A stretch of 64,000 nucleotides of DNA from Candidatus Hydrothermarchaeota archaeon (GCA_046760505.1 JBHIEG010000002.1:32001-96000), one strand, 5' to 3'; positions 37,056 through 45,685 are shown, counted from the first letter of the stretch. The notes: generated by a model not told the origin, from the letters alone. Translations and numbers: made by a program.

Positions 37056-37931
37056 ATGAAATACGCTCCACACATATTTTTCATTTTAATTATTTCTTTC
37101 ACATCTGTTGCCTTTTCACAGTCCATAAGTGTGAGTTCAAGTTACCCTGATTTCATAGCTCAGGGTGACAAAGGTGTAGTCCTTTTAACCATTAAAAACG
37201 ATTTTGATAAACCCAGAGAAGTATCTATTTTCATTCATACATCTGCTTTTGATGTAATCGGGCACAATCCGGTTAATTTTACGATCCTCCCTATGACAAC
37301 GAAGAGCGTTCCATTCGTTCTAACACCAGTAAAAGAGCCTGGTTACTACAAGGTAGACGTCATAATTAGCGTAGACAATAAGATAAAGGGACAAGAATTC
37401 TACATAGAAATAAGGAAACCGATGATGGTAATCAATTTTCCAAGAATTGCCATTTTCATACTGTTTATTTTTGCCTTCTATCTTGTACTTGCTTTTTTAA
37501 GGGGAGAATCATTAAGAAAAGAGTTCAACGAACTCGTTAAGTCTCTTGTTTTTGCATTGGCCCTTTATTTTGTATTAAGCAGTTTATTAACTTATGCTTT
37601 TAATTCAGATACACCCATAGTCGCTGTTGCGTCAGATAGCATGGTTCCGACATTAAATAGGGGGGACGTTTTGTTTGTAAAGGGAGGAGAAGACATAAAT
37701 GAAGGAGATATTATAGTTTACAGAAGTCCGGTTGGAAACATACCGATTATCCATAGGGTTATAAAAGTTAAAGACAACCAGACATATATAACTAAAGGAG
37801 ATGCGAATCCAGCACCAGATCCATGGGAGGTAAAGAAAAGTTGGGTAACCGGCAAGGTAATTATGATAGATCATAGACCCCTTCTCATTCCATGGATCGG
37901 TAAGTTGCGTTTGATCCTCTCTGGCTTGTGA
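37056..37931 (+). CDS. signal peptidase I (S26, Sec11/SipW type) fused to an N-terminal secreted Ig-like domain
   Basis: VASDSMVP (Ser), RGD, IIHRV (His), TKGDAN..PD; N-terminal signal peptide, about 100 aa beta-sandwich-like region, 2 TM. Confidence 0.88.
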   Translation: MKYAPHIFFILIISFTSVAFSQSISVSSSYPDFIAQGDKGVVLLTIKNDFDKPREVSIFIHTSAFDVIGHNPVNFTILPMTTKSVPFVLTPVKEPGYYKVDVIISVDNKIKGQEFYIEIRKPMMVINFPRIAIFILFIFAFYLVLAFLRGESLRKEFNELVKSLVFALALYFVLSSLLTYAFNSDTPIVAVASDSMVPTLNRGDVLFVKGGEDINEGDIIVYRSPVGNIPIIHRVIKVKDNQTYITKGDANPAPDPWEVKKSWVTGKVIMIDHRPLLIPWIGKLRLILSGL

Positions 37932-37932
37932 G

Positions 37933-38277
37933 GTGATTAAAATAGAACTGATAAAAATACCGAAGACAAGATGTATCGTATGTAGTCAGATGCATAAAAG
38001 AAAAAAAATAGAATTTGAGGAATTACACTGGGACATCGTAAGCGGCGCATTTTCTGAAGAACAAATATACTTCTGCCCTGCTCATATCGATGAATTCGTG
38101 GATTGGATAATAAAAAATCCCAAGATGCTTGAGAAAAAAATTCCTGCAAGCGGATTAATGATCAATGCCGAAATAGCAACTCCAATTGATGTATTGGGAT
38201 TATTAAAAAAGAGAATAAATGAAAAAATCGAGTTCTATAAAAAAATAGATGAAAAACTGGAGTTCTTGAACAAATAA
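37933..38277 (+). CDS. hypothetical protein with CxxC...CxxH putative Zn site
   Basis: CIVC and CPAH; directly follows the peptidase gene. Confidence 0.6.
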   Translation: MIKIELIKIPKTRCIVCSQMHKRKKIEFEELHWDIVSGAFSEEQIYFCPAHIDEFVDWIIKNPKMLEKKIPASGLMINAEIATPIDVLGLLKKRINEKIEFYKKIDEKLEFLNK

Positions 38278-38347
38278 AGTATTTCCCATCAGGGAAAAAT
38301 CAAAGCAATTTCGCGGGATGATTGATAGATAAAGGAGGCTTCACTGT

Positions 38348-38932
38348 TTATTTTAAGTTTCTTATTCTAAATAAATCCGGATAAAATAAAAAAATCATGC
38401 CCAGAGAGATTAAGATTAGAGATATCCAAAATAGTTTAAGATGTATCCTAGATGAGAGAATTATGAAATCAAATATGAAAAGAATTATCCCCAAATGCAA
38501 TAGACCAGAGCCAAGCTGTAGGGTAAACCCGATCTTCTTAAAAAATAGTTTCTTTCTTTGAATCAATGCAATTATCAAATACAATTGAATCGTCAATAAA
38601 ACAATAAAAAGGAATGCAAGAGCGAATTTTAAATCGTAAATGGAAATAAATAAGGTTGATACTAAAATTAATGAGATTATTCTGATAATTTTCTCGTAAA
38701 AAATTCTTTTTGGAATGCAAATTCCCAAAAGGATGACTATGACCAGTATAAAGGGTAAAGATAACTTGGTCAGATGCTGAACGTAATTATCATATAACGG
38801 AGTCTGTTCCCAGTTCACAAACCTCAAACTGTATGTATGCCCTAGGATAACACCGTAGAAAAAGACAATTCCCAGTAAGAATAGTACACAAAACGTAATC
38901 TCTTCTAGGCTTTCATGGATTCTTTTATGCAT
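38348..38932 (-). CDS. membrane protein, probable C-terminal part of a split CcmF-like heme lyase
   Basis: About 6 TM; GSGLLHLGIILF resembles the CcmF G...HLG motif; overlaps the upstream ccmF-like stop. Confidence 0.55.
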   Translation of the reverse strand: MHKRIHESLEEITFCVLFLLGIVFFYGVILGHTYSLRFVNWEQTPLYDNYVQHLTKLSLPFILVIVILLGICIPKRIFYEKIIRIISLILVSTLFISIYDLKFALAFLFIVLLTIQLYLIIALIQRKKLFFKKIGFTLQLGSGLLHLGIILFIFDFIILSSRIHLKLFWISLILISLGMIFLFYPDLFRIRNLK

Positions 38933-39854
38933 AGGTGTGAACTCCTTTTACGTAATATGAGATAAGGAATGTAAAAATCAAAGAAATGTAACAAAATATT
39001 GCAACGCCTGCGATTACTTTTTTGTTCCTGTTTGTCAATCGAAGATGTAAGTAACCAGTGTAGAATAACCATAGCATTATGGAAGCGTTTATTTTTGGAG
39101 AAAACCACCATTTTTCGTCTTTCCATGCTTCAATTGCCCATGGATAACCAATTAGTAATCCTATGGTTAGCAAAAAATATCCAAACTTCGCGTAAGAAAT
39201 CGCTGTCTGATCTCCTTTATCTTTAATCAATACCAGGCCAGACATGGAAAAATTCAAAAAAAGCGATCCATAAGAAGCAAATAACAAAGGTGGATGTATC
39301 CACATGTAGGATGAGTTGTAATAGTAGATCGCCTTTGAATAAAGGCGGGAATACGCATAGAATATTGTCTGATAATCGTAGTAAGCAGCATGAGAAGATT
39401 GAATAACCCAACCGTACAACTCTTTAGAAAAATTTGGAAGTGGTTCCAGAAATGGATTTGAGTATATGCATACGATCAATGTAAAAATCGCTATTGGAAT
39501 GCTAGCTGCAATTTTTTCTTCTCTTTTAATTGGAATCGAGAGTAAGACTGCGATAAAACACCAAAAGTACAATTTTTCGTTTTCAATCCATAGAGGAATC
39601 TTAAATCTAAAGTAAAAGTCGGAATAAGGATTTTTAATTATCAACTGGGATATTTTATAGTGAAAGAATGCCAAGAAGATGAATCCGAGTAAAAAAAGAG
39701 AAGCATGTATGTATAGCGGTATTTCCGACTTAGATTTTTTTAAAGAAAAGAAAATAAGAGAAAATGAGGACAAAATAAGTAAAGGAGTTAAAATTTCTCC
39801 AAAACCTATGGTTAGATCAAGGATCTCCATGTAATTAGCCCATAGTGTAGACAT
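38925..39854 (-). CDS. ccmF: cytochrome c biogenesis protein, CcmF N-terminal/CcsA family
   Basis: NPF, WIHPPLLFASY, LTIGLLIGYPWA..AW...WWFSPK (WWD-like), WL.YTGYLH and C-terminal GVH. Confidence 0.82.
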   Translation of the reverse strand: MSTLWANYMEILDLTIGFGEILTPLLILSSFSLIFFSLKKSKSEIPLYIHASLFLLGFIFLAFFHYKISQLIIKNPYSDFYFRFKIPLWIENEKLYFWCFIAVLLSIPIKREEKIAASIPIAIFTLIVCIYSNPFLEPLPNFSKELYGWVIQSSHAAYYDYQTIFYAYSRLYSKAIYYYNSSYMWIHPPLLFASYGSLFLNFSMSGLVLIKDKGDQTAISYAKFGYFLLTIGLLIGYPWAIEAWKDEKWWFSPKINASIMLWLFYTGYLHLRLTNRNKKVIAGVAIFCYISLIFTFLISYYVKGVHTYA

Positions 39855-39944
39855 ATCCTTACTCTGAACCTACCGACTTAAATGTTTTGATATAAAATAA
39901 TTTATACTCCAAAAAACATTTTTATAAACAAGGGCGTGCGCTAG

Positions 39945-40256
39945 ATGAAGTACGATGTTAAATGCAATAAATGTTCAACCAGATTTGTGGTTGAAAAAAA
40001 TCCTAGTTGTCCAAGAAAAAAACCCAAACATCTGCTAGCACTCTGTCCAACATGTAACGTAACCAGAAAAACCATAGTCTCACTTTCTAAAGATAACTAC
40101 GAAAATACAAGGGCTCTATCCAAATTGTTATATATGTGTGCGTTGATTTATTTCGCATATATGATCGTAGAGATTTATTTAGTAAATGCAATAAATCTGG
40201 CAGATATATTGCTGTTGTTTGTACTCGGCATGAGCGGATATATAACATCAAGGTGA
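39945..40256 (+). CDS. Zn-ribbon plus 2-TM membrane protein
   Basis: CNKC...CPTC then two hydrophobic helices. Confidence 0.7.
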   Translation: MKYDVKCNKCSTRFVVEKNPSCPRKKPKHLLALCPTCNVTRKTIVSLSKDNYENTRALSKLLYMCALIYFAYMIVEIYLVNAINLADILLLFVLGMSGYITSR

Positions 40257-40261
40257 ATAAA

Positions 40262-40729
40262 ATGGCTATACTCGAAAGCAAAGAAGACAAGCAGTGGAGG
40301 GAATTTTTAAGCTGGATAGCAGGTAAAAAATTTAAGGATGTGGATGGCGCATTCGAATGGCTTGGTATAGAGGCCAAGAAGTTGAATGTGGATCCTCACA
40401 AATACATGGAATTACTCGGTCTCCTAGCAAAAACAATAAGTGCTTATGATAGCGCGGAGTTGATGGGGGCCGGCTTGCCAGAGTTTTTGAAGTCATACAA
40501 TAAATTGAAAGAAGAAGCAAGCGATGAATTTCCAAATGTCATAAGAACTATATTGGTAGGACTACAAATGAGATTTGTCGGAGATGCCATCTCTGTGGGC
40601 GGTGAGAAAGGTTTCATGCGACTTTCCATTACATTGGGCTCAAGGATGATCGAACAAATTTTGTTTGGCGATAATCAGGTAAAAGAATTTCCATGGAGAG
40701 AAATCATAGAACTTGTGAAGGAAGAGTAA
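40262..40729 (+). CDS. hypothetical helical protein
   Basis: Start reassigned to ATG 40262 after an AGGTGA RBS; 155 aa. Confidence 0.7.
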   Translation: MAILESKEDKQWREFLSWIAGKKFKDVDGAFEWLGIEAKKLNVDPHKYMELLGLLAKTISAYDSAELMGAGLPEFLKSYNKLKEEASDEFPNVIRTILVGLQMRFVGDAISVGGEKGFMRLSITLGSRMIEQILFGDNQVKEFPWREIIELVKEE

Positions 40730-40982
40730 TGCGGGAGTCTGATTAAAATCCAATTTCTACCACCTTGCCTAGCTCTGTTGCAAGAGATCAGTCAAAAAAA
40801 GCTTTTGATATAGAATATCCTCATCATATGTGAAAACTTCTTAGAAATGTTTAAAAGAAGAATTTTTTAGAGTAATAAACAAGAGAATAACATGCACCAT
40901 TCGCTCTTCAAAACCAGATAACATAGATTTTAAATATTATCCATGAATTTTTTAAAATTAGACTTGTAACGCAGGTGTATGT

Positions 40983-41360
40983 ATGCAAGAGGATGAAATG
41001 TGGCATGTTATGTGTAGGGTTTGCGGGAATAAATTCTACATAAAAAAACCTGCCAGAGAGTATGAGTTCCTTCTTAATCAATGCACGACCTGTAATGCAC
41101 TTAGAAGAGTTTATGTTCTGGAAAAAGGTAAGCGGCGAGTCTTAAAGTATTATTATTTCCCCCGTATCAAAAAATTGGCAAGTCACCTCTTTACCTCAGT
41201 ATTTTTTTTAGTGATGCTCGGAATCATGTTCCTTGGAGGGGGTCTGGCATACTTGGCCTATACAGCTCAGTACGACTTTGGAGGCCATATAGGACTAGCA
41301 GCAATAGCCGTTGCTCTATTCTTGATCATCGACAAAGTATATGAACTTAAATTTGGATAG
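40983..41360 (+). CDS. Zn-ribbon plus 2-TM membrane protein (paralog of 39945-40256)
   Basis: CRVC...CTTC then two TM helices. Confidence 0.72.
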   Translation: MQEDEMWHVMCRVCGNKFYIKKPAREYEFLLNQCTTCNALRRVYVLEKGKRRVLKYYYFPRIKKLASHLFTSVFFLVMLGIMFLGGGLAYLAYTAQYDFGGHIGLAAIAVALFLIIDKVYELKFG

Positions 41361-41369
41361 TGGTAAGTC

Positions 41370-42065
41370 ATGGCTATTCCAGAAAAATTGAAAGAAGCAG
41401 ATAAAATACTGTACGTTGAAATGGCATTCGGAGTGCTCCTACTTTTTTTTGCCATATACGGTATAGTTAACGCCTTTGATTATTTTGCCTCCGCATGGAT
41501 GGGTCACATGGGAGACAGACTTGTTAGCAGGAGTGAAATTATTCCGTTTTGGAGAAGCGCCTTGGCTTCATGTGTGAGAATGGTTATTGTCGCCTTCATA
41601 GGAGGAGTGCTCACCGCTCACTCAGCGATAGGTATTTTCGGAGAAGAAAGGTTATATGGACCCATTGCATCTGCGATGGAACAGATTACGTCAAAAGAGA
41701 GAAGTGGTAAGATAAAAATATCCGACGGTATTTCTTTTATAACGGCTAAACTACACCGAAAAAACGCTCCGAGAACTGTTAATGCTTTATTAAATAAATT
41801 GCCATTATCGGTTGAGAAAGTCGAAGTGTACAACGACAACGTTTTACTTTTAAATTTTGAACTTGATGTTGAAGGTGAAAACCAACGGATAACCATAAAA
41901 AATGGAGAAATAGGTTATATACCAGAGTTAAAACAAATTTGCATTGCAATCAATGAGGAAAGGATGATTTCCCCGGTGAATATAATCGGTAAAGTGGAAG
42001 AAGGAGATGCTTCTGCTCTACAAATAGATAGAGGACTATCTATTAAAACATCGATGGTGGAATAA
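41370..42065 (+). CDS. membrane protein with C-terminal cyclophilin-like (DUF369/DUF3830-type) domain
   Basis: 2 TM then AP.TV..L...LPL, GEIGY.P....ICI and PVNIIGKV pattern. Confidence 0.7.
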   Translation: MAIPEKLKEADKILYVEMAFGVLLLFFAIYGIVNAFDYFASAWMGHMGDRLVSRSEIIPFWRSALASCVRMVIVAFIGGVLTAHSAIGIFGEERLYGPIASAMEQITSKERSGKIKISDGISFITAKLHRKNAPRTVNALLNKLPLSVEKVEVYNDNVLLLNFELDVEGENQRITIKNGEIGYIPELKQICIAINEERMISPVNIIGKVEEGDASALQIDRGLSIKTSMVE

Positions 42066-42071
42066 TGATAG

Positions 42072-42281
42072 ATGGATAAAGACATTAGGATCTTAATAAT
42101 CCTCCTCTGCATTATTATTGGTTTTTTGATTTTAAGAGGTGTGGGATTTATACTTGCTGGCACATCTCTCATCATAATCTTTGGTTTCTCTCATCATCAT
42201 TCTACCCTAACTTACATTCTTGAAGTACTCGGGATAATGTTCGTATTGTATGGAATAATAAGACTATACAGGGAGATTTGA
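42072..42281 (+). CDS. small membrane protein
   Basis: 69 aa, three hydrophobic segments with a central HHH. Confidence 0.6.
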   Translation: MDKDIRILIILLCIIIGFLILRGVGFILAGTSLIIIFGFSHHHSTLTYILEVLGIMFVLYGIIRLYREI

Positions 42282-42686
42282 TAGAAAAATCTTTAATCTA
42301 CCAACCTTTGGCAGTTTCACAATATGATTCTCGATGGTATAAAGTTTTCCAGATATCTTTGTGTTTTGAATTAAAAATGGACCCTTTAAACGACTTTTTC
42401 CTGAAATCGGATAGCCGACTAAATAGACCTTCCCCTTAATATCCAAGACCTCCATAATCACAGGAAAATTCATATCTACCACAACAAAATCTCCTTTTTT
42501 AATATTTATCGGACTTTCTACCAGCAGAATGTCACCACGATTTATAATCGGGCTCAGTAAATCATTTTCTTGAATATAAAAAGGTCTTTCAGTATTTAAA
42601 GCAATTACAAACGAATTAAAAATCACAAAAACAAGCAATATGCCGGATACTATAATTTTGATAAGTAACTGTAACTCTTTGCTCAT
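42264..42686 (-). CDS. degenerate S26 signal peptidase-like protein (catalytic Ser/His absent)
   Basis: TM, L.TERP, P.INRGDILLV, I.KGD.VV, I.GK and KLPKVG.LK align with 37056-37931, but the SxSM and HR motifs are missing. Confidence 0.7.
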   Translation of the reverse strand: MSKELQLLIKIIVSGILLVFVIFNSFVIALNTERPFYIQENDLLSPIINRGDILLVESPINIKKGDFVVVDMNFPVIMEVLDIKGKVYLVGYPISGKSRLKGPFLIQNTKISGKLYTIENHIVKLPKVGRLKIFLSNLPV

Positions 42687-42782
42687 TTATACCAGCTCAG
42701 CTTTGTGGGGTTTTAATCTCTTTCTTATAGCCCAAAACCCCAAAAACGTTGCGGCTCTTTCAAGATGTGATTTCCTTAGCAT
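42687..42782 (-). CDS. putative 31-aa small ORF
   Basis: MLRKSHLERAATFLGFWAIRKRLKPHKAELV; TAA directly abuts the next ATG; TATA-like CTTATA about 25 nt upstream. Confidence 0.3.
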   Translation of the reverse strand: MLRKSHLERAATFLGFWAIRKRLKPHKAELV

Positions 42783-42850
42783 GAAAAAAATTCTAAAGCG
42801 GATATAAGTATAAGATTTATCTATGGAGATGTATCTTTTCAAAAATTTCG

Positions 42851-42870
42851 GAGGGGGCTGAGCCCCTTTT
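42851..42870 (-). terminator. GC hairpin terminator after the major tetraheme cytochrome gene
   Basis: GGGGC-3nt-GCCCC about 15 nt past the stop, followed by TTTTT on the minus strand. Confidence 0.55.
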
Positions 42871-42880
42871 GTGCAAAGAA

Positions 42881-43540
42881 TTATGTCTTACTTGTTACTG
42901 TCCAACTGAACGACTGATTTGCTACGTATCCACTACCCCAAGTCACAGTATCGGTTTGTGCATTGTATGTTATATTGAAGCCCATTTTATTAGTCCACGT
43001 GATTCCTACGGGTACTTGCGTATGACATGTTACACATCCCCTAGAAGTGTTACTCATCTGGTTCAGTGCGATCTTCGCATCAGAAGCCCAACCCATGCTA
43101 CCGGTTGCGTTTCTTACCATAGGTCCGTGAGCACTAGAGTTAAGCCAGAGAACTCTGTTTGAGTAACCTGCTGCATCCCCTTTTATGTGACATCTCGCAC
43201 AATCCGAATATGTTACATTGTGGCCGTGAACACTTACAGAAGGATCGTAAGAGCCGGCATCCATGCCTTCAGTCGAATGGCACCACATGCAAGCAGTGTT
43301 GTTAATATTGCTAGCGTTCCAGTGGGGGATTGTCCCGCTACCAGCAAAATCGGCCGAGGCAGCCTCCGTTGCCTCTGCTGAATGACAACTCCTACATTTT
43401 GGAATAACCCACGTGTGACTCCCTTGATACCTTGCTAGGGTAGATGGTATTGCTACGAAGACTATTAGTACCAGCAGAGCAAGCAATAATGCAAATGCAG
43501 CTAACCTTCTCCTTGCCCTCCTCCTCATGTATTCCGCCAT
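42881..43540 (-). CDS. secreted tetraheme c-type cytochrome (candidate major nanowire subunit)
   Basis: CRSCH, CMWCH, CARCH, CVTCH; signal peptide ending PSTLA|RYQGSHTW; 8 N-x-S/T sequons; GAGGTGA RBS. Confidence 0.92.
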   Translation of the reverse strand: MAEYMRRRARRRLAAFALLLALLVLIVFVAIPSTLARYQGSHTWVIPKCRSCHSAEATEAASADFAGSGTIPHWNASNINNTACMWCHSTEGMDAGSYDPSVSVHGHNVTYSDCARCHIKGDAAGYSNRVLWLNSSAHGPMVRNATGSMGWASDAKIALNQMSNTSRGCVTCHTQVPVGITWTNKMGFNITYNAQTDTVTWGSGYVANQSFSWTVTSKT

Positions 43541-43544
43541 GTAA

Positions 43545-43610
43545 GTTTCACCTCGCTATATTATATATTAAAGCGATCCATATATATAATTTTTGATAGA
43601 TATATCTACG
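43545..43610 (-). promoter_or_regulatory. promoter of the major cytochrome (BRE/TATA, upstream palindrome, RBS)
   Basis: Minus strand reads TAGATATATCTA (12-bp palindrome, 43597-43608), then CAAAAA-TTATATATA, then GAGGTGA before the ATG. Confidence 0.6.
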
Positions 43611-43650
43611 CATTTGCTCCAAACACCGGTGATGGACGAAATATAGGTCG

Positions 43651-44190
43651 TTAACGTCTGAATAAAGATAATTTGATGATTCTTGAAAATGCCTGCAGAG
43701 ATCTAAATGCATCTCTCTTCCTTTTTTCCAGATCCGGTTTGCTTAACTTGTACTTTGTAAGAAAATTACCTTTTGCGACGGATAACTTTTCCATAAGAAG
43801 ATCAGGAGTCCTTAAAAGTCCTACCCACGGAATACGTTCGACAACCTTACCTTCAATAGCCTCAAATGGTATGAAACCATCATCCATAGGAACGTTGTCT
43901 CCTTTGGTTATCACACCTCCTTCTTTTATATTTATGATTCTGTGGGTAACAGTAGTTTTTCCTGATTTATAAACGACTATATCTCCTACGTTAAGACTTC
44001 TCTCATCAACGTCTTTGTAAACGACGATATCTCCCATCTTTAGTGCAGGTACCATACTCTCGCTTGAAACGTATGAAAAATCGTAGAGATAAAAGACAAT
44101 GAGTGTGAGGCCAATCAGCAGTAGAACAACTGTTAAAGGGACGTACCTTCCTATAGACTTAACCTTTCTAGATAAATACCGTCGCCGCAG
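43651..44190 (-). CDS. signal peptidase I (S26, SipW-like), probable CTG start
   Basis: Manual extension gives (M)RRRYLSRKVK, a TM helix, then VSSESMVP (Ser), GD, VTHRI (His), TKGDN and IEGKV..IPWVG. Confidence 0.88.
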   Translation of the reverse strand: MRRRYLSRKVKSIGRYVPLTVVLLLIGLTLIVFYLYDFSYVSSESMVPALKMGDIVVYKDVDERSLNVGDIVVYKSGKTTVTHRIINIKEGGVITKGDNVPMDDGFIPFEAIEGKVVERIPWVGLLRTPDLLMEKLSVAKGNFLTKYKLSKPDLEKRKRDAFRSLQAFSRIIKLSLFRR

Positions 44191-44193
44191 ATT

Positions 44194-44610
44194 TCATCCT
44201 CTCCATGTAAAGTTGACCTTTACATCGGTATGGCATGCCATACAGCCTTCTGATCTAGTCAATTGGCTGTGTATGCTGTTGTTTAGAGATTTAGATTGGT
44301 TAGTTCCACTATGGCAATTCATGCATTCTGTCAGAGTTACGTTATGGCCAAATTGGTGACATTCTTTGCATTGAGTTTGATTTATTTCGGTAAAGTAATA
44401 ATGAGGCCAGATAGATGATTTTGTTTTATTTAATTCCTCAACAATGTCTACGTGACAAACAACACAGTTTGGACTAGATATCCATGTGTGGGAACCCATG
44501 TACCTCGATAGGGTTGTTGGCAAAAGCAATAAGGCGATTAAAATGATTAATGAAAATGCTGCAAATATTTTAACCGTTTTCCTCAAGAATGATTTTCCCA
44601 CATAGATCAC
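44194..44610 (-). CDS. secreted tetraheme c-type cytochrome (short paralog)
   Basis: CVVCH, CKECH, CMNCH, CMACH; signal peptide ending PTTLS|RYMGSHTW; 6 N-glycosylation sequons. Confidence 0.92.
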   Translation of the reverse strand: MIYVGKSFLRKTVKIFAAFSLIILIALLLLPTTLSRYMGSHTWISSPNCVVCHVDIVEELNKTKSSIWPHYYFTEINQTQCKECHQFGHNVTLTECMNCHSGTNQSKSLNNSIHSQLTRSEGCMACHTDVKVNFTWRG

Positions 44611-45230
44611 CTGAGTAGGGCTATAAAATCATGCCAGAATGATAGATCAAAAATCTTATTTATAGCATCTCTAATCGTGGGTGATTTAATTTCATATCCA
44701 ACTGGGGTCTCAGGTTTAATTTCTTCTATTTTTTCACTTTTTCCATGACATGCATCACAAGGCTTTTTATTCTCATGTATTCCATGCAAGTCCTCACCAT
44801 GACATGCTATACAGTTATTCAATGGTTTGTAAATTTCCTCTTCACCACCGTGGCATCTTACGCAATCCACACTTATGTGTATCTCATGAGGATTAGACCC
44901 GTGACACCTCCAGCACAATTCTTTATTTCCGGAATGGGCTTTTTTATAATCATGACAAGCACACCTTATTCTCTCAAAACTCTTTGGAGAGTGGCACCAG
45001 TTGCAATCATGGATAGGGTTATCCAAATGAAACCAAGAAATGCCTATGTCGTATCTCTCATGACATGTCCTACAGTAAGTATCGAAGTGATCAGGATTGA
45101 AATGGGGTATCCTCTTGGAGAAATCCAAATTGCTATGGCAAGAAAGACAGTTCCTGCCCCTAAATTCAAGTCTTGTTAAACTTGGTGCGATCAAAAGGAC
45201 CATGATGATAAGAGCTACAAGTTTTTTCAT
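44607..45230 (-). CDS. secreted multiheme c-type cytochrome (7 CxxCH plus 1 CxCH)
   Basis: CLSCH, CRTCH, CNWCH, CACH, CWRCH, CVRCH, CIACH, CDACH; signal peptide from ATG 45230; amphipathic C-terminal tail. Confidence 0.9.
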   Translation of the reverse strand: MKKLVALIIMVLLIAPSLTRLEFRGRNCLSCHSNLDFSKRIPHFNPDHFDTYCRTCHERYDIGISWFHLDNPIHDCNWCHSPKSFERIRCACHDYKKAHSGNKELCWRCHGSNPHEIHISVDCVRCHGGEEEIYKPLNNCIACHGEDLHGIHENKKPCDACHGKSEKIEEIKPETPVGYEIKSPTIRDAINKIFDLSFWHDFIALLR

Positions 45231-45243
45231 ATAAAATAAACTA

Positions 45244-45290
45244 TACTGAGACACGCATATATCTTACGGTGTTCTCAGTAGTTTACTGAG
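45244..45290. promoter_or_regulatory. three TACTGAG half-sites upstream of the cytochrome operon
   Basis: TACTGAG 45244-45250, CTCAGTA 45274-45280, TACTGAG 45284-45290. Confidence 0.45.
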
Positions 45291-45340
45291 GCATCACCTT
45301 TTTGGTTTACAATCTCTCACTAAATATTCCAAATTAGTAT

Positions 45341-45685
45341 CTACTCTGAGATCTTTTCTTTAAATTCTCTAAGCGTATTGTTTCCCGTCTCCAACTCTTC
45401 TCTTATTATTGAAAACATTTCCATTATCATTGCAGTTCTGCCTTCTTTGTAGTTCATCTCTACCATTTGCAAAAAATATTCGACAATGGCGATGTTTTTA
45501 ACAAAAGACTCCGTAATATTTGAGTTTCTTGCCATATTCAGAAGAGAGCGGGTCATGATCAGCGTCTCTTCCAGATGGAATTCCCAGCCCTCGTCCATGT
45601 ATAAAGGATCTTCTAGTTTTTTTGTAGATTCCATTATGTTTTTAAGTGTAAGTTCCATTTTATCAATTTGGCTCTCCGAGACCAT
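45341..45685 (-). CDS. hypothetical helical protein
   Basis: 114 aa, acidic, Met-rich. Confidence 0.6.
   Translation of the reverse strand: MVSESQIDKMELTLKNIMESTKKLEDPLYMDEGWEFHLEETLIMTRSLLNMARNSNITESFVKNIAIVEYFLQMVEMNYKEGRTAMIMEMFSIIREELETGNNTLREFKEKISE

Follow-up and report, generated by a model that had tools for sequence, protein, structure and literature searches.

The window analysed here is a 64,000-nucleotide stretch from Candidatus Hydrothermarchaeota archaeon (GCA_046760505.1, JBHIEG010000002.1:32001-96000), and its positions 37056 to 45685 hold a locus of multihaem cytochromes, S26 signal peptidases and membrane proteins. Judged by sequence, two genes of this locus encode tetraheme subunits of the AvECN family of extracellular cytochrome nanowires (ECN), AvECN being the nanowire of Archaeoglobus veneficus whose structure (PDB 8E5G) was reportedly described by Baquero et al. 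in 2023. We consider it probable that the locus specifies an AvECN-type filament whose subunits would be exported by the Sec pathway, loaded with haem by the Ccm system, cleaved by the S26 peptidase encoded between them, and stacked with swapped His ligands on an anchored cytochrome, the shorter subunit acting as initiator or cap. The host genome (G000; completeness 100, contamination 5.67) belongs to a phylum of only two genomes, the other of which, G001, is also the sole further member of the genus. Comparisons were made with a survey set of 401 archaeal genomes, given G-numbers, and with individual loci or contigs fetched from genomes and metagenomes, given L-numbers.

The two subunit genes lie on the minus strand:

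42881..43540, minus strand: long AvECN-family tetraheme cytochrome of 219 amino acids (aa), with a signal peptide ending P-S-T-L-A, four CXXCH motifs, four conserved distal His, a 46-residue C-terminal arm and eight N-glycosylation sequons.
44194..44610, minus strand: short AvECN-family tetraheme cytochrome of 138 aa, with four CXXCH motifs and no C-terminal arm.

For both proteins the top PDB match is 8E5G (E 2.9e-4 for the long, 1.5e-6 for the short), with PcECN second. A representative-set search returned 78 hits, and 43, later 49, family rows were aligned, comprising both window proteins, the G001 orthologue and hits matching N-terminally. The 49-row profile matches 8E5G over its full length at E 4.5e-54, the next PDB match lying at 1.4e-10. 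All four proximal and four distal His, including that of the N-terminal G-x-H, are invariant in the long and short proteins, and the same positions are His in 8E5G. These results bear out the proposal, made in an earlier note on this DNA, that the tetrahemes are nanowire-type cytochromes. The likeness to AvECN further includes whole-length homology, the junction of signal peptide and G-x-H-x-W, the C-H-T-x-V-x-(I/V)-x-W end of haem 4, and the presence of tandem paralogues. ECN-family genes occur in 19 of the 401 genomes (E<=1e-8). In a 41-row tree, from which 8E5G was absent, both window subunits share a supported 14-row subclade (99/96) with proteins of G001, G025, G026 and metagenomes. Unlike AvECN, the window subunits thus belong to a separate subclade from deep lineages that includes a conserved short form, and their host, whose phylum comprises two genomes, is not among the Halobacteriota-type hosts mentioned in the literature examined. 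Genome contigs scanned with the short subunit alone yielded the G001 locus and six weak bacterial multihaem matches only, and a metagenome scan yielded four loci, two of them relevant.

An export signal is present in the form of one hydrophobic helix (residues 12-31) followed by P-x-T-x-A/S, the presumptive cleavage site. N-glycosylation sequons exceed those of shuffled sequences in the long protein (8 versus 3.0, p 0.002) and in the short one (6 versus 1.8). Three of the four AvECN haems receive their distal His from another subunit, according to the portion of PMC12203936 consulted, and retention of the same ligand set argues that the window subunits would likewise oligomerise and may polymerise. 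Haem-free (apo) monomer models were poor (pLDDT 73 and 64), as expected if distal ligands come from other subunits. A fold search with the long apo model ranked 8E5G first but at E 1.2, a wide search matched the signal helix only, and the short apo model gave three matches at E<=10, none relevant.

The short subunit terminates 11 residues past haem 4, where 43 of the 49 family rows extend 27-93 residues and the long subunit 46; it therefore lacks the C-terminal arm, a beta-rich element that may function in assembly. Six short forms cluster weakly (82/84) inside the 14-row subclade. We take the long protein to be the major filament subunit and the short one the minor. Two elements precede the long subunit gene:

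43579..43596, minus strand: 18-base AT-rich BRE/TATA-like element 5' of the long subunit gene, identical in G001.
43548-43554: perfect GAGGTGA ribosome site before the long subunit gene, in G000 only.

The first of these is the putative promoter of the long subunit gene. A hairpin 3' of the gene is kept in G001 yet is not significant (z -1.08), and a sigma-70 scan of the DNA, with a model unsuited to archaea, found 33 sites against 38.0 expected, nothing over chance. With 63% identity to G001, the long subunit is the most divergent of 15 genes compared. A minor contig of run X2 (depth 6.8), covering window positions 42700-43404, matches in the flanks and the signal-peptide region and has most of the long subunit replaced or diverged; it may derive from a strain or species that co-occurs and whose wire surface differs. 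Two further variants of ECN loci were observed. G001 encodes on its contig C15 (L048:9745-11947) an additional 130-aa two-haem protein with an ECN-type N-terminus, adjoining a cytochrome with at least 18 haems, and neither was found in the G000 assembly. In G025, whose phylum is represented by one genome, a near-duplicate of the long ECN subunit stands at the start of contig C22 (L011) and faces the original across hexahaem and TM-cyclophilin genes.

As the earlier note had recorded, three S26 genes are present, two of them interleaved with the cytochromes:

37056..37931, plus strand: signal peptide, probable Ig-like domain, two transmembrane (TM) helices and active S26 domain, 291 aa; TIGR02228 98.2 bits.
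43651..44190, minus strand: S26 between the two subunits, 179 aa, one TM helix, Ser and His intact, probable CTG start; TIGR02228 75.2 bits.
42264..42686, minus strand: catalytically dead S26 paralogue, 140 aa, one TM helix; TIGR02228 25.8 bits.

The first two exceed the TIGR02228 cut-off (51.85 bits) and retain catalytic Ser and His, as archaeal signal peptidase I does. The middle gene has no ATG, GTG or TTG ahead of its TM helix, and its upstream frame is kept in G001, most of the changes falling at third codon positions, so that it probably starts at CTG 44190; a frameshift there was rejected, no indel being found in the contigs of four of four runs (one study). In the third gene the catalytic columns read Asp for Ser and Glu for His in both G000 and G001, which removes it from the active enzymes, and an Atlas model, with TM 0.83-0.84 against clusters of signal peptidases, suggests that the fold is kept. 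Gene order is identical in G001, and dN/dS between the two genomes is 0.04-0.25 for 15 of 15 genes compared, so that none of these is a chance open reading frame (ORF) or pseudogene. The dead S26 in particular, at 0.19, is under purifying selection, and its reading as a pseudogene was rejected. The trio of active, Ig-fused and dead peptidases singled out in the earlier note is thus real, although it was seen in this genus only (two genomes), and the Ig-like label comes from a pattern in the sequence and from weak similarity (E 0.15) to a macroglobulin domain, the region having no significant Pfam match. The restriction of the Ig-fused and dead forms to the genus comes from word-indexed searches of limited reach, in which the dead form gave two hits.

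Linkage of S26 to ECN genes extends well beyond this genus. Of the 18 other ECN-positive genomes, 10 have a TIGR02228 match no more than 10 kb from ECN genes (9 within 2.4 kb), where at most 0.88 would be expected; these represent seven of nine families, kin not being independent. In three more, an S26 belonging to the ECN-linked clades is encoded on a different contig. A survey of synteny across archaea, which the earlier note had proposed, therefore finds the peptidase linkage conserved. In the unrelated metagenome contig L085 the arrangement of short subunit followed directly by S26 recurs, and the middle S26 matches that S26 end to end, C-terminal tail included (E 3e-19). The middle S26 is the best candidate for the subunit-processing peptidase, although which enzyme cuts is part of the proposal. 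ECN-linked S26 proteins of three genomes (L037:2923, L040:8455, L047:12005) open with a QYQYQY repeat.

The description of these peptidases as SipW-type did not hold, since NF046067 scores were 39.9 and 26.6 bits (the second from an internal ATG) against a cut-off of 190. Nor was any TIGR04088 match, which would mark SipW-cognate substrates, found at ECN genes in five of five genomes at E<=10; the model is positive elsewhere in G163, where SipW-cognate genes adjoin a different S26 clade. The TasA motif has small residues at -3 and -1 and an aromatic residue at +2. The window resembles the TasA/SipW and TafA/TafD systems in placing filament subunit genes next to their own S26 and in having small -3/-1 and aromatic +2 residues, and differs in that its subunits are haem proteins, not donor-strand pilins, and in that neither the SipW nor the SipW-cognate model is matched. 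For TafA, another archaeal filament protein, a locus-encoded S26 is required for processing, according to the part of PMC11821415 available.

Two further genes are candidate partners of the wire:

44607..45254, minus strand: secreted cytochrome with seven CXXCH and one CXCH, and a C-terminal amphipathic helix; the start may be ATG 45230.
41370..42065, plus strand: two TM helices (conserved His in TM2, conserved Trp) and a cyclophilin-like domain, 231 aa; PF04126.

The first confirms the 7-8-heme cytochrome of the earlier note, its seven CXXCH and one CXCH being kept in G001. It aligns with the 5-6-haem proteins that are encoded close to ECN or S26 genes at 10 loci besides G001, whose amphipathic C-terminal helix it shares, and it has no N-glycosylation sequons. 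A profile of nine homologues from other genomes recovers it at E 9e-11, but other multihaem proteins of G000 score too. Given its resemblance to the anchored cytochrome of other ECN loci, it is likely the membrane-anchor component that the earlier note had postulated, and would form the membrane-attached base of the wire. The CXCH (window 44950-44965) occurs in G000 and G001, and in three homologues (L025, L032, L035) a CXCH stands at another haem position; it is possibly an atypical haem site and the reason for an extra CcmF. The TM-cyclophilin-like gene adjoins ECN genes in G000, G001, G025 and L085, and its TM part was found in 3 of the 401 genomes (G000, G001, G025), all seed genomes, which suggests an ECN-linked accessory.

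From the observed homology, ligand conservation, gene linkage and selection we infer the following course of events, in which the cleavage site, the cutting enzyme, polymerisation, all accessory roles and the direction in which electrons flow are proposals. The minus-strand block at 42264-45254 would encode an AvECN-type extracellular cytochrome filament. Its subunits would be exported unfolded by Sec and receive four haems each from the cell's Ccm system, and the middle S26 would then cut after P-x-T-x-A/S, freeing an N-terminal x-Y-x-G-S-H strand. The 219-aa subunits would stack head to tail and donate distal His to their neighbours, as in AvECN; the 138-aa subunit, which has no C-terminal arm, is probably a minor component that initiates or caps the wire. 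Held by its amphipathic tail, the 7-haem cytochrome would probably serve as the base and connect the wire with quinol oxidases of the membrane, whose genes lie elsewhere. The dead S26 and, likewise, the TM-cyclophilin protein probably help without acting as catalysts.

The earlier note had also described a self-contained system with its own minimal heme lyase. A split CcmF-like pair is indeed present:

38925..39854, minus strand: N-terminal CcmF-like half, 309 aa, with the WIHPP His, a WWD-like loop, a TM His and a terminal VH-type His; PF01578 70.5 bits.
38348..38932, minus strand: five-TM partner, 194 aa, with one conserved TM His.

In the CcmF literature the N-half His are numbered 173/261/303 and a fourth His is of the 491 type (PMC3884852, in the part consulted). 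Aligned to the full CcmF of G000, the 309-aa half has the three N-half His and a degenerate WWD loop; it has no PDB sequence match. The 194-aa partner is colinear with the CcmF C-half minus its periplasmic domain, although its scores (2.4 and -0.1 bits) are no higher than those of shuffles (up to 5.8). Its TM His is kept in eight of eight rows, and it adjoins the 309-aa gene in G001 and in six of the seven other loci fetched; it is probably a minimal CcmF C-half. In G000, however, CcmABCE, a full CcmF and another split CcmF are encoded elsewhere (as judged from ORF sequences and PF01578 hits), as is a housekeeping S26 on contig C6. Furthermore, the 309-aa gene stands beside ECN genes only in G000 and G001, two of its ten carrier genomes, and among housekeeping genes in the seven other loci fetched (G175 locus excluded), all from ECN-positive genomes. 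The claim of self-containment was therefore overstated; a dedicated heme lyase is possible. The left half of the locus (Ig-S26, CcmF-like pair and Zn-ribbon proteins) would supply extra, possibly general, secretion and maturation capacity near the wire genes.

These facts lend weight to a filament of the same core built by undedicated machinery, in which the housekeeping S26 and the Ccm set would mature the subunits and the extra S26s and the CcmF-like pair would belong to a general envelope-biogenesis island that came to lie beside the ECN genes in this genus. This account, which is compatible with a filament, has in our judgement slightly less than an even chance. The nearest G000 relative of the Ig-S26 is the housekeeping S26 (E 5e-31). 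S26 trees were built with all 42 rows and with 36 of the 42 (one long branch and five near-duplicates dropped; LG+G4). In the 36-row analysis, constraining the Ig-fused and dead S26s to the housekeeping lineage cost 0.31 lnL (p-AU 0.47), versus 19.4 (p-AU 0.075) for the ECN-linked S26s, and the data allow the middle S26 to group with the ECN-linked clades (p-AU 0.38), although short-domain trees are weak and establish neither grouping. Against undedicated machinery stand the linkage of S26 to ECN genes well above chance, the recurrence in L085 of the short subunit and S26 pair, and the distribution of the 309-aa gene, which is found in 10 of 401 genomes, nine of them among the 19 that are ECN-positive, one family dominating the count.

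Several observations weigh against our preferred reading of a dedicated AvECN-type filament system. Identity to AvECN is low and the direct E-values are modest. No strong tree support places any of the three S26s in the ECN-linked clades. Five of the 18 other ECN-positive genomes (G025, G026, G048, G315 and G335; 88-98% complete) show only S26s of other clades, so that a dedicated peptidase may be dispensable, and G000 yielded no counterpart of the membrane partner that adjoins ECN-linked S26 genes in other genomes (best hit a 71-aa ORF, E 0.003). The available portion of PMC13748539 treats the physiological role of AvECN itself as unresolved, and the family member MmcX imported electrons in Shewanella, with no filament reported in that portion of the study (PMC11176372).

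Regarding function, G000 has 15 ORFs with at least two CXXCH, the largest having 13, together with two NapC/NirT-type 12-haem proteins, a cytochrome b pair and an NrfD module. It encodes two CdhA, and MqnC lies near its cut-off (411.5 versus 428.1 bits); neither Mcr nor DsrA was found in G000. This inventory fits quinone-linked extracellular electron transfer, the direction of flow being part of the proposal, and agrees with the earlier suggestion of such a host in that its quinol-oxidase-type cytochromes could pass electrons out.

It is unlikely that the subunits give short oligomers attached to the cell, or a redox layer at its surface, with no micrometre wires and growth halted early by the short subunit. 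The divergence of their subclade would allow this, and filaments are proven for AvECN and PcECN only, the Methanoperedens ECN not having been resolved as a filament in the excerpts of PMC13748539; but the long subunit retains the complete interfacial ligand set and the C-terminal arm, and its gene apparently has its own promoter. The eukaryotic signal peptidase complex comprises catalytic and scaffold subunits. By analogy, a distinct assembly route can be envisaged, with an arm-less short initiator or terminator and a hetero-oligomeric platform of active, Ig-fused and dead S26 that, with the TM-cyclophilin protein, would replace the pair of peptidase and membrane partner and pass holo-subunits to the wire, in a phylum not yet known to be electroactive; we regard this as quite improbable. 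Finally, a filament for adhesion, biofilm scaffolding or charge storage is very unlikely, for although the long subunit is the most variable gene of the locus, like surface antigens, and producers of AvECN and PcECN were not grown on extracellular acceptors according to the same excerpts of PMC13748539, the host is rich in multihaem and quinol-oxidase genes and no Mcr or DsrA was found as an internal electron sink.

ECN genes accompanied by an additional signal peptidase form the core of the AvECN-type locus, a core that is usual in this family and not new. Section 24 of PMC9012536 (Chadwick et al., 2022) already describes three features in anaerobic methanotrophic archaea (ANME), Ferroglobus and Geoglobus: an additional signal peptidase that is encoded among cytochrome genes and for which a role in cytochrome maturation is proposed, a membrane partner that lacks annotation, and an extra and split CcmF. 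Neither the first nor the last of these is therefore new. Unlike those systems, as far as that section presents them, the window has an ECN-adjacent S26 with one TM helix and no detectable membrane partner, plus Ig-like-fused and dead S26s; the window pair may correspond to CcmF3, and the usual partner to the '8x TMH' protein of that source. A split CcmF1/CcmF2 functions in Methanosarcina acetivorans (PMC9084895, in part), and the window pair resembles it in comprising two genes with a WWD half that carries the catalytic His, and differs in that its partner is 194 aa without a periplasmic domain and the pair is an extra paralogue, not the sole lyase. What is new is the short subunit form, the S26 trio (two genomes, one genus), the linked TM-cyclophilin protein, the apparent lack of the customary membrane partner, and a host that represents a phylum-level lineage. 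In the open literature, subscription journals being largely uncovered, we found no published account of a short ECN subunit, of dead or Ig-fused S26, or of a TM-cyclophilin partner at ECN loci.

The secretion, initiation and termination of cytochrome nanowires are stated as an open question in the part of bioRxiv 10.1101/2025.10.22.684050 consulted. Here about 3 kb encodes both subunits, long and short, along with a peptidase, a candidate anchor and a pseudo-peptidase, and their roles are therefore testable by co-expression. The helper set, a shortened second subunit and three S26s of which one is inactive, offers testable leads on wire building in an uncultured deep-sea-vent archaeon. AvECN-type wires would extend to a phylum-level vent lineage with Wood-Ljungdahl genes, in which no Mcr or DsrA was found, and this suggests that the lineage uses mineral- or partner-linked electron transfer. 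The four runs containing window DNA are hydrothermal vent metagenomes from a single study, three of them flagged as possible sources.

Every ORF named in the earlier note was found where it had been placed. The region is made up of at least four gene blocks of alternating orientation and is not a single operon:

Block 1, plus strand: Ig-S26 and a 114-aa ORF, downstream of a TrmB regulator.
Block 2, minus strand: CcmF-like pair.
Block 3, plus strand: two Zn-ribbon/TM genes, a 156-aa ORF, the TM-cyclophilin-like gene and a 69-aa ORF.
Block 4, minus strand, 42264-45254: 7-haem cytochrome, short tetraheme, S26, long tetraheme and dead S26.

The remaining genes of the locus, all but the first of them no more than candidates for a link to the wire, are these:

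42072..42281, plus strand: two-TM protein, 69 aa, kept in G001.
39945..40256, plus strand: Zn-ribbon and two TM helices, 103 aa, with N-terminal homology to a tetraheme cytochrome on contig C15 (E 9.7e-11).
40983..41360, plus strand: second Zn-ribbon and two TM helices, 125 aa, immediately 5' of the TM-cyclophilin gene.
40259..40729, plus strand: soluble protein of unassigned function, 156 aa.
37933..38277, plus strand: 114-aa protein with a Cys/His motif and a paralogue on contig C24.
45341..45685, minus strand: 114-aa ORF upstream of the cytochrome block; the G001 contig stops short of it.

The C15 cytochrome (G000:C15:29317-30024; L089:2318-3022) is a tetraheme protein with an N-terminal Zn-ribbon (two CXXC) preceding a TM helix. 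Its Zn-ribbon part is homologous to the ORF at 39945-40256, and the combination of a cytoplasmic metal ribbon with an outside multihaem domain is an odd architecture. Giant cytochromes of 23-68 haems flank ECN arrays elsewhere (L022-L025, L032), with none seen in G000. On contig C10 of G000 (L092:6389-8989), an NrfD membrane subunit is fused to an FAD-linked oxidase and clustered with a ferredoxin and two multihaem cytochromes.

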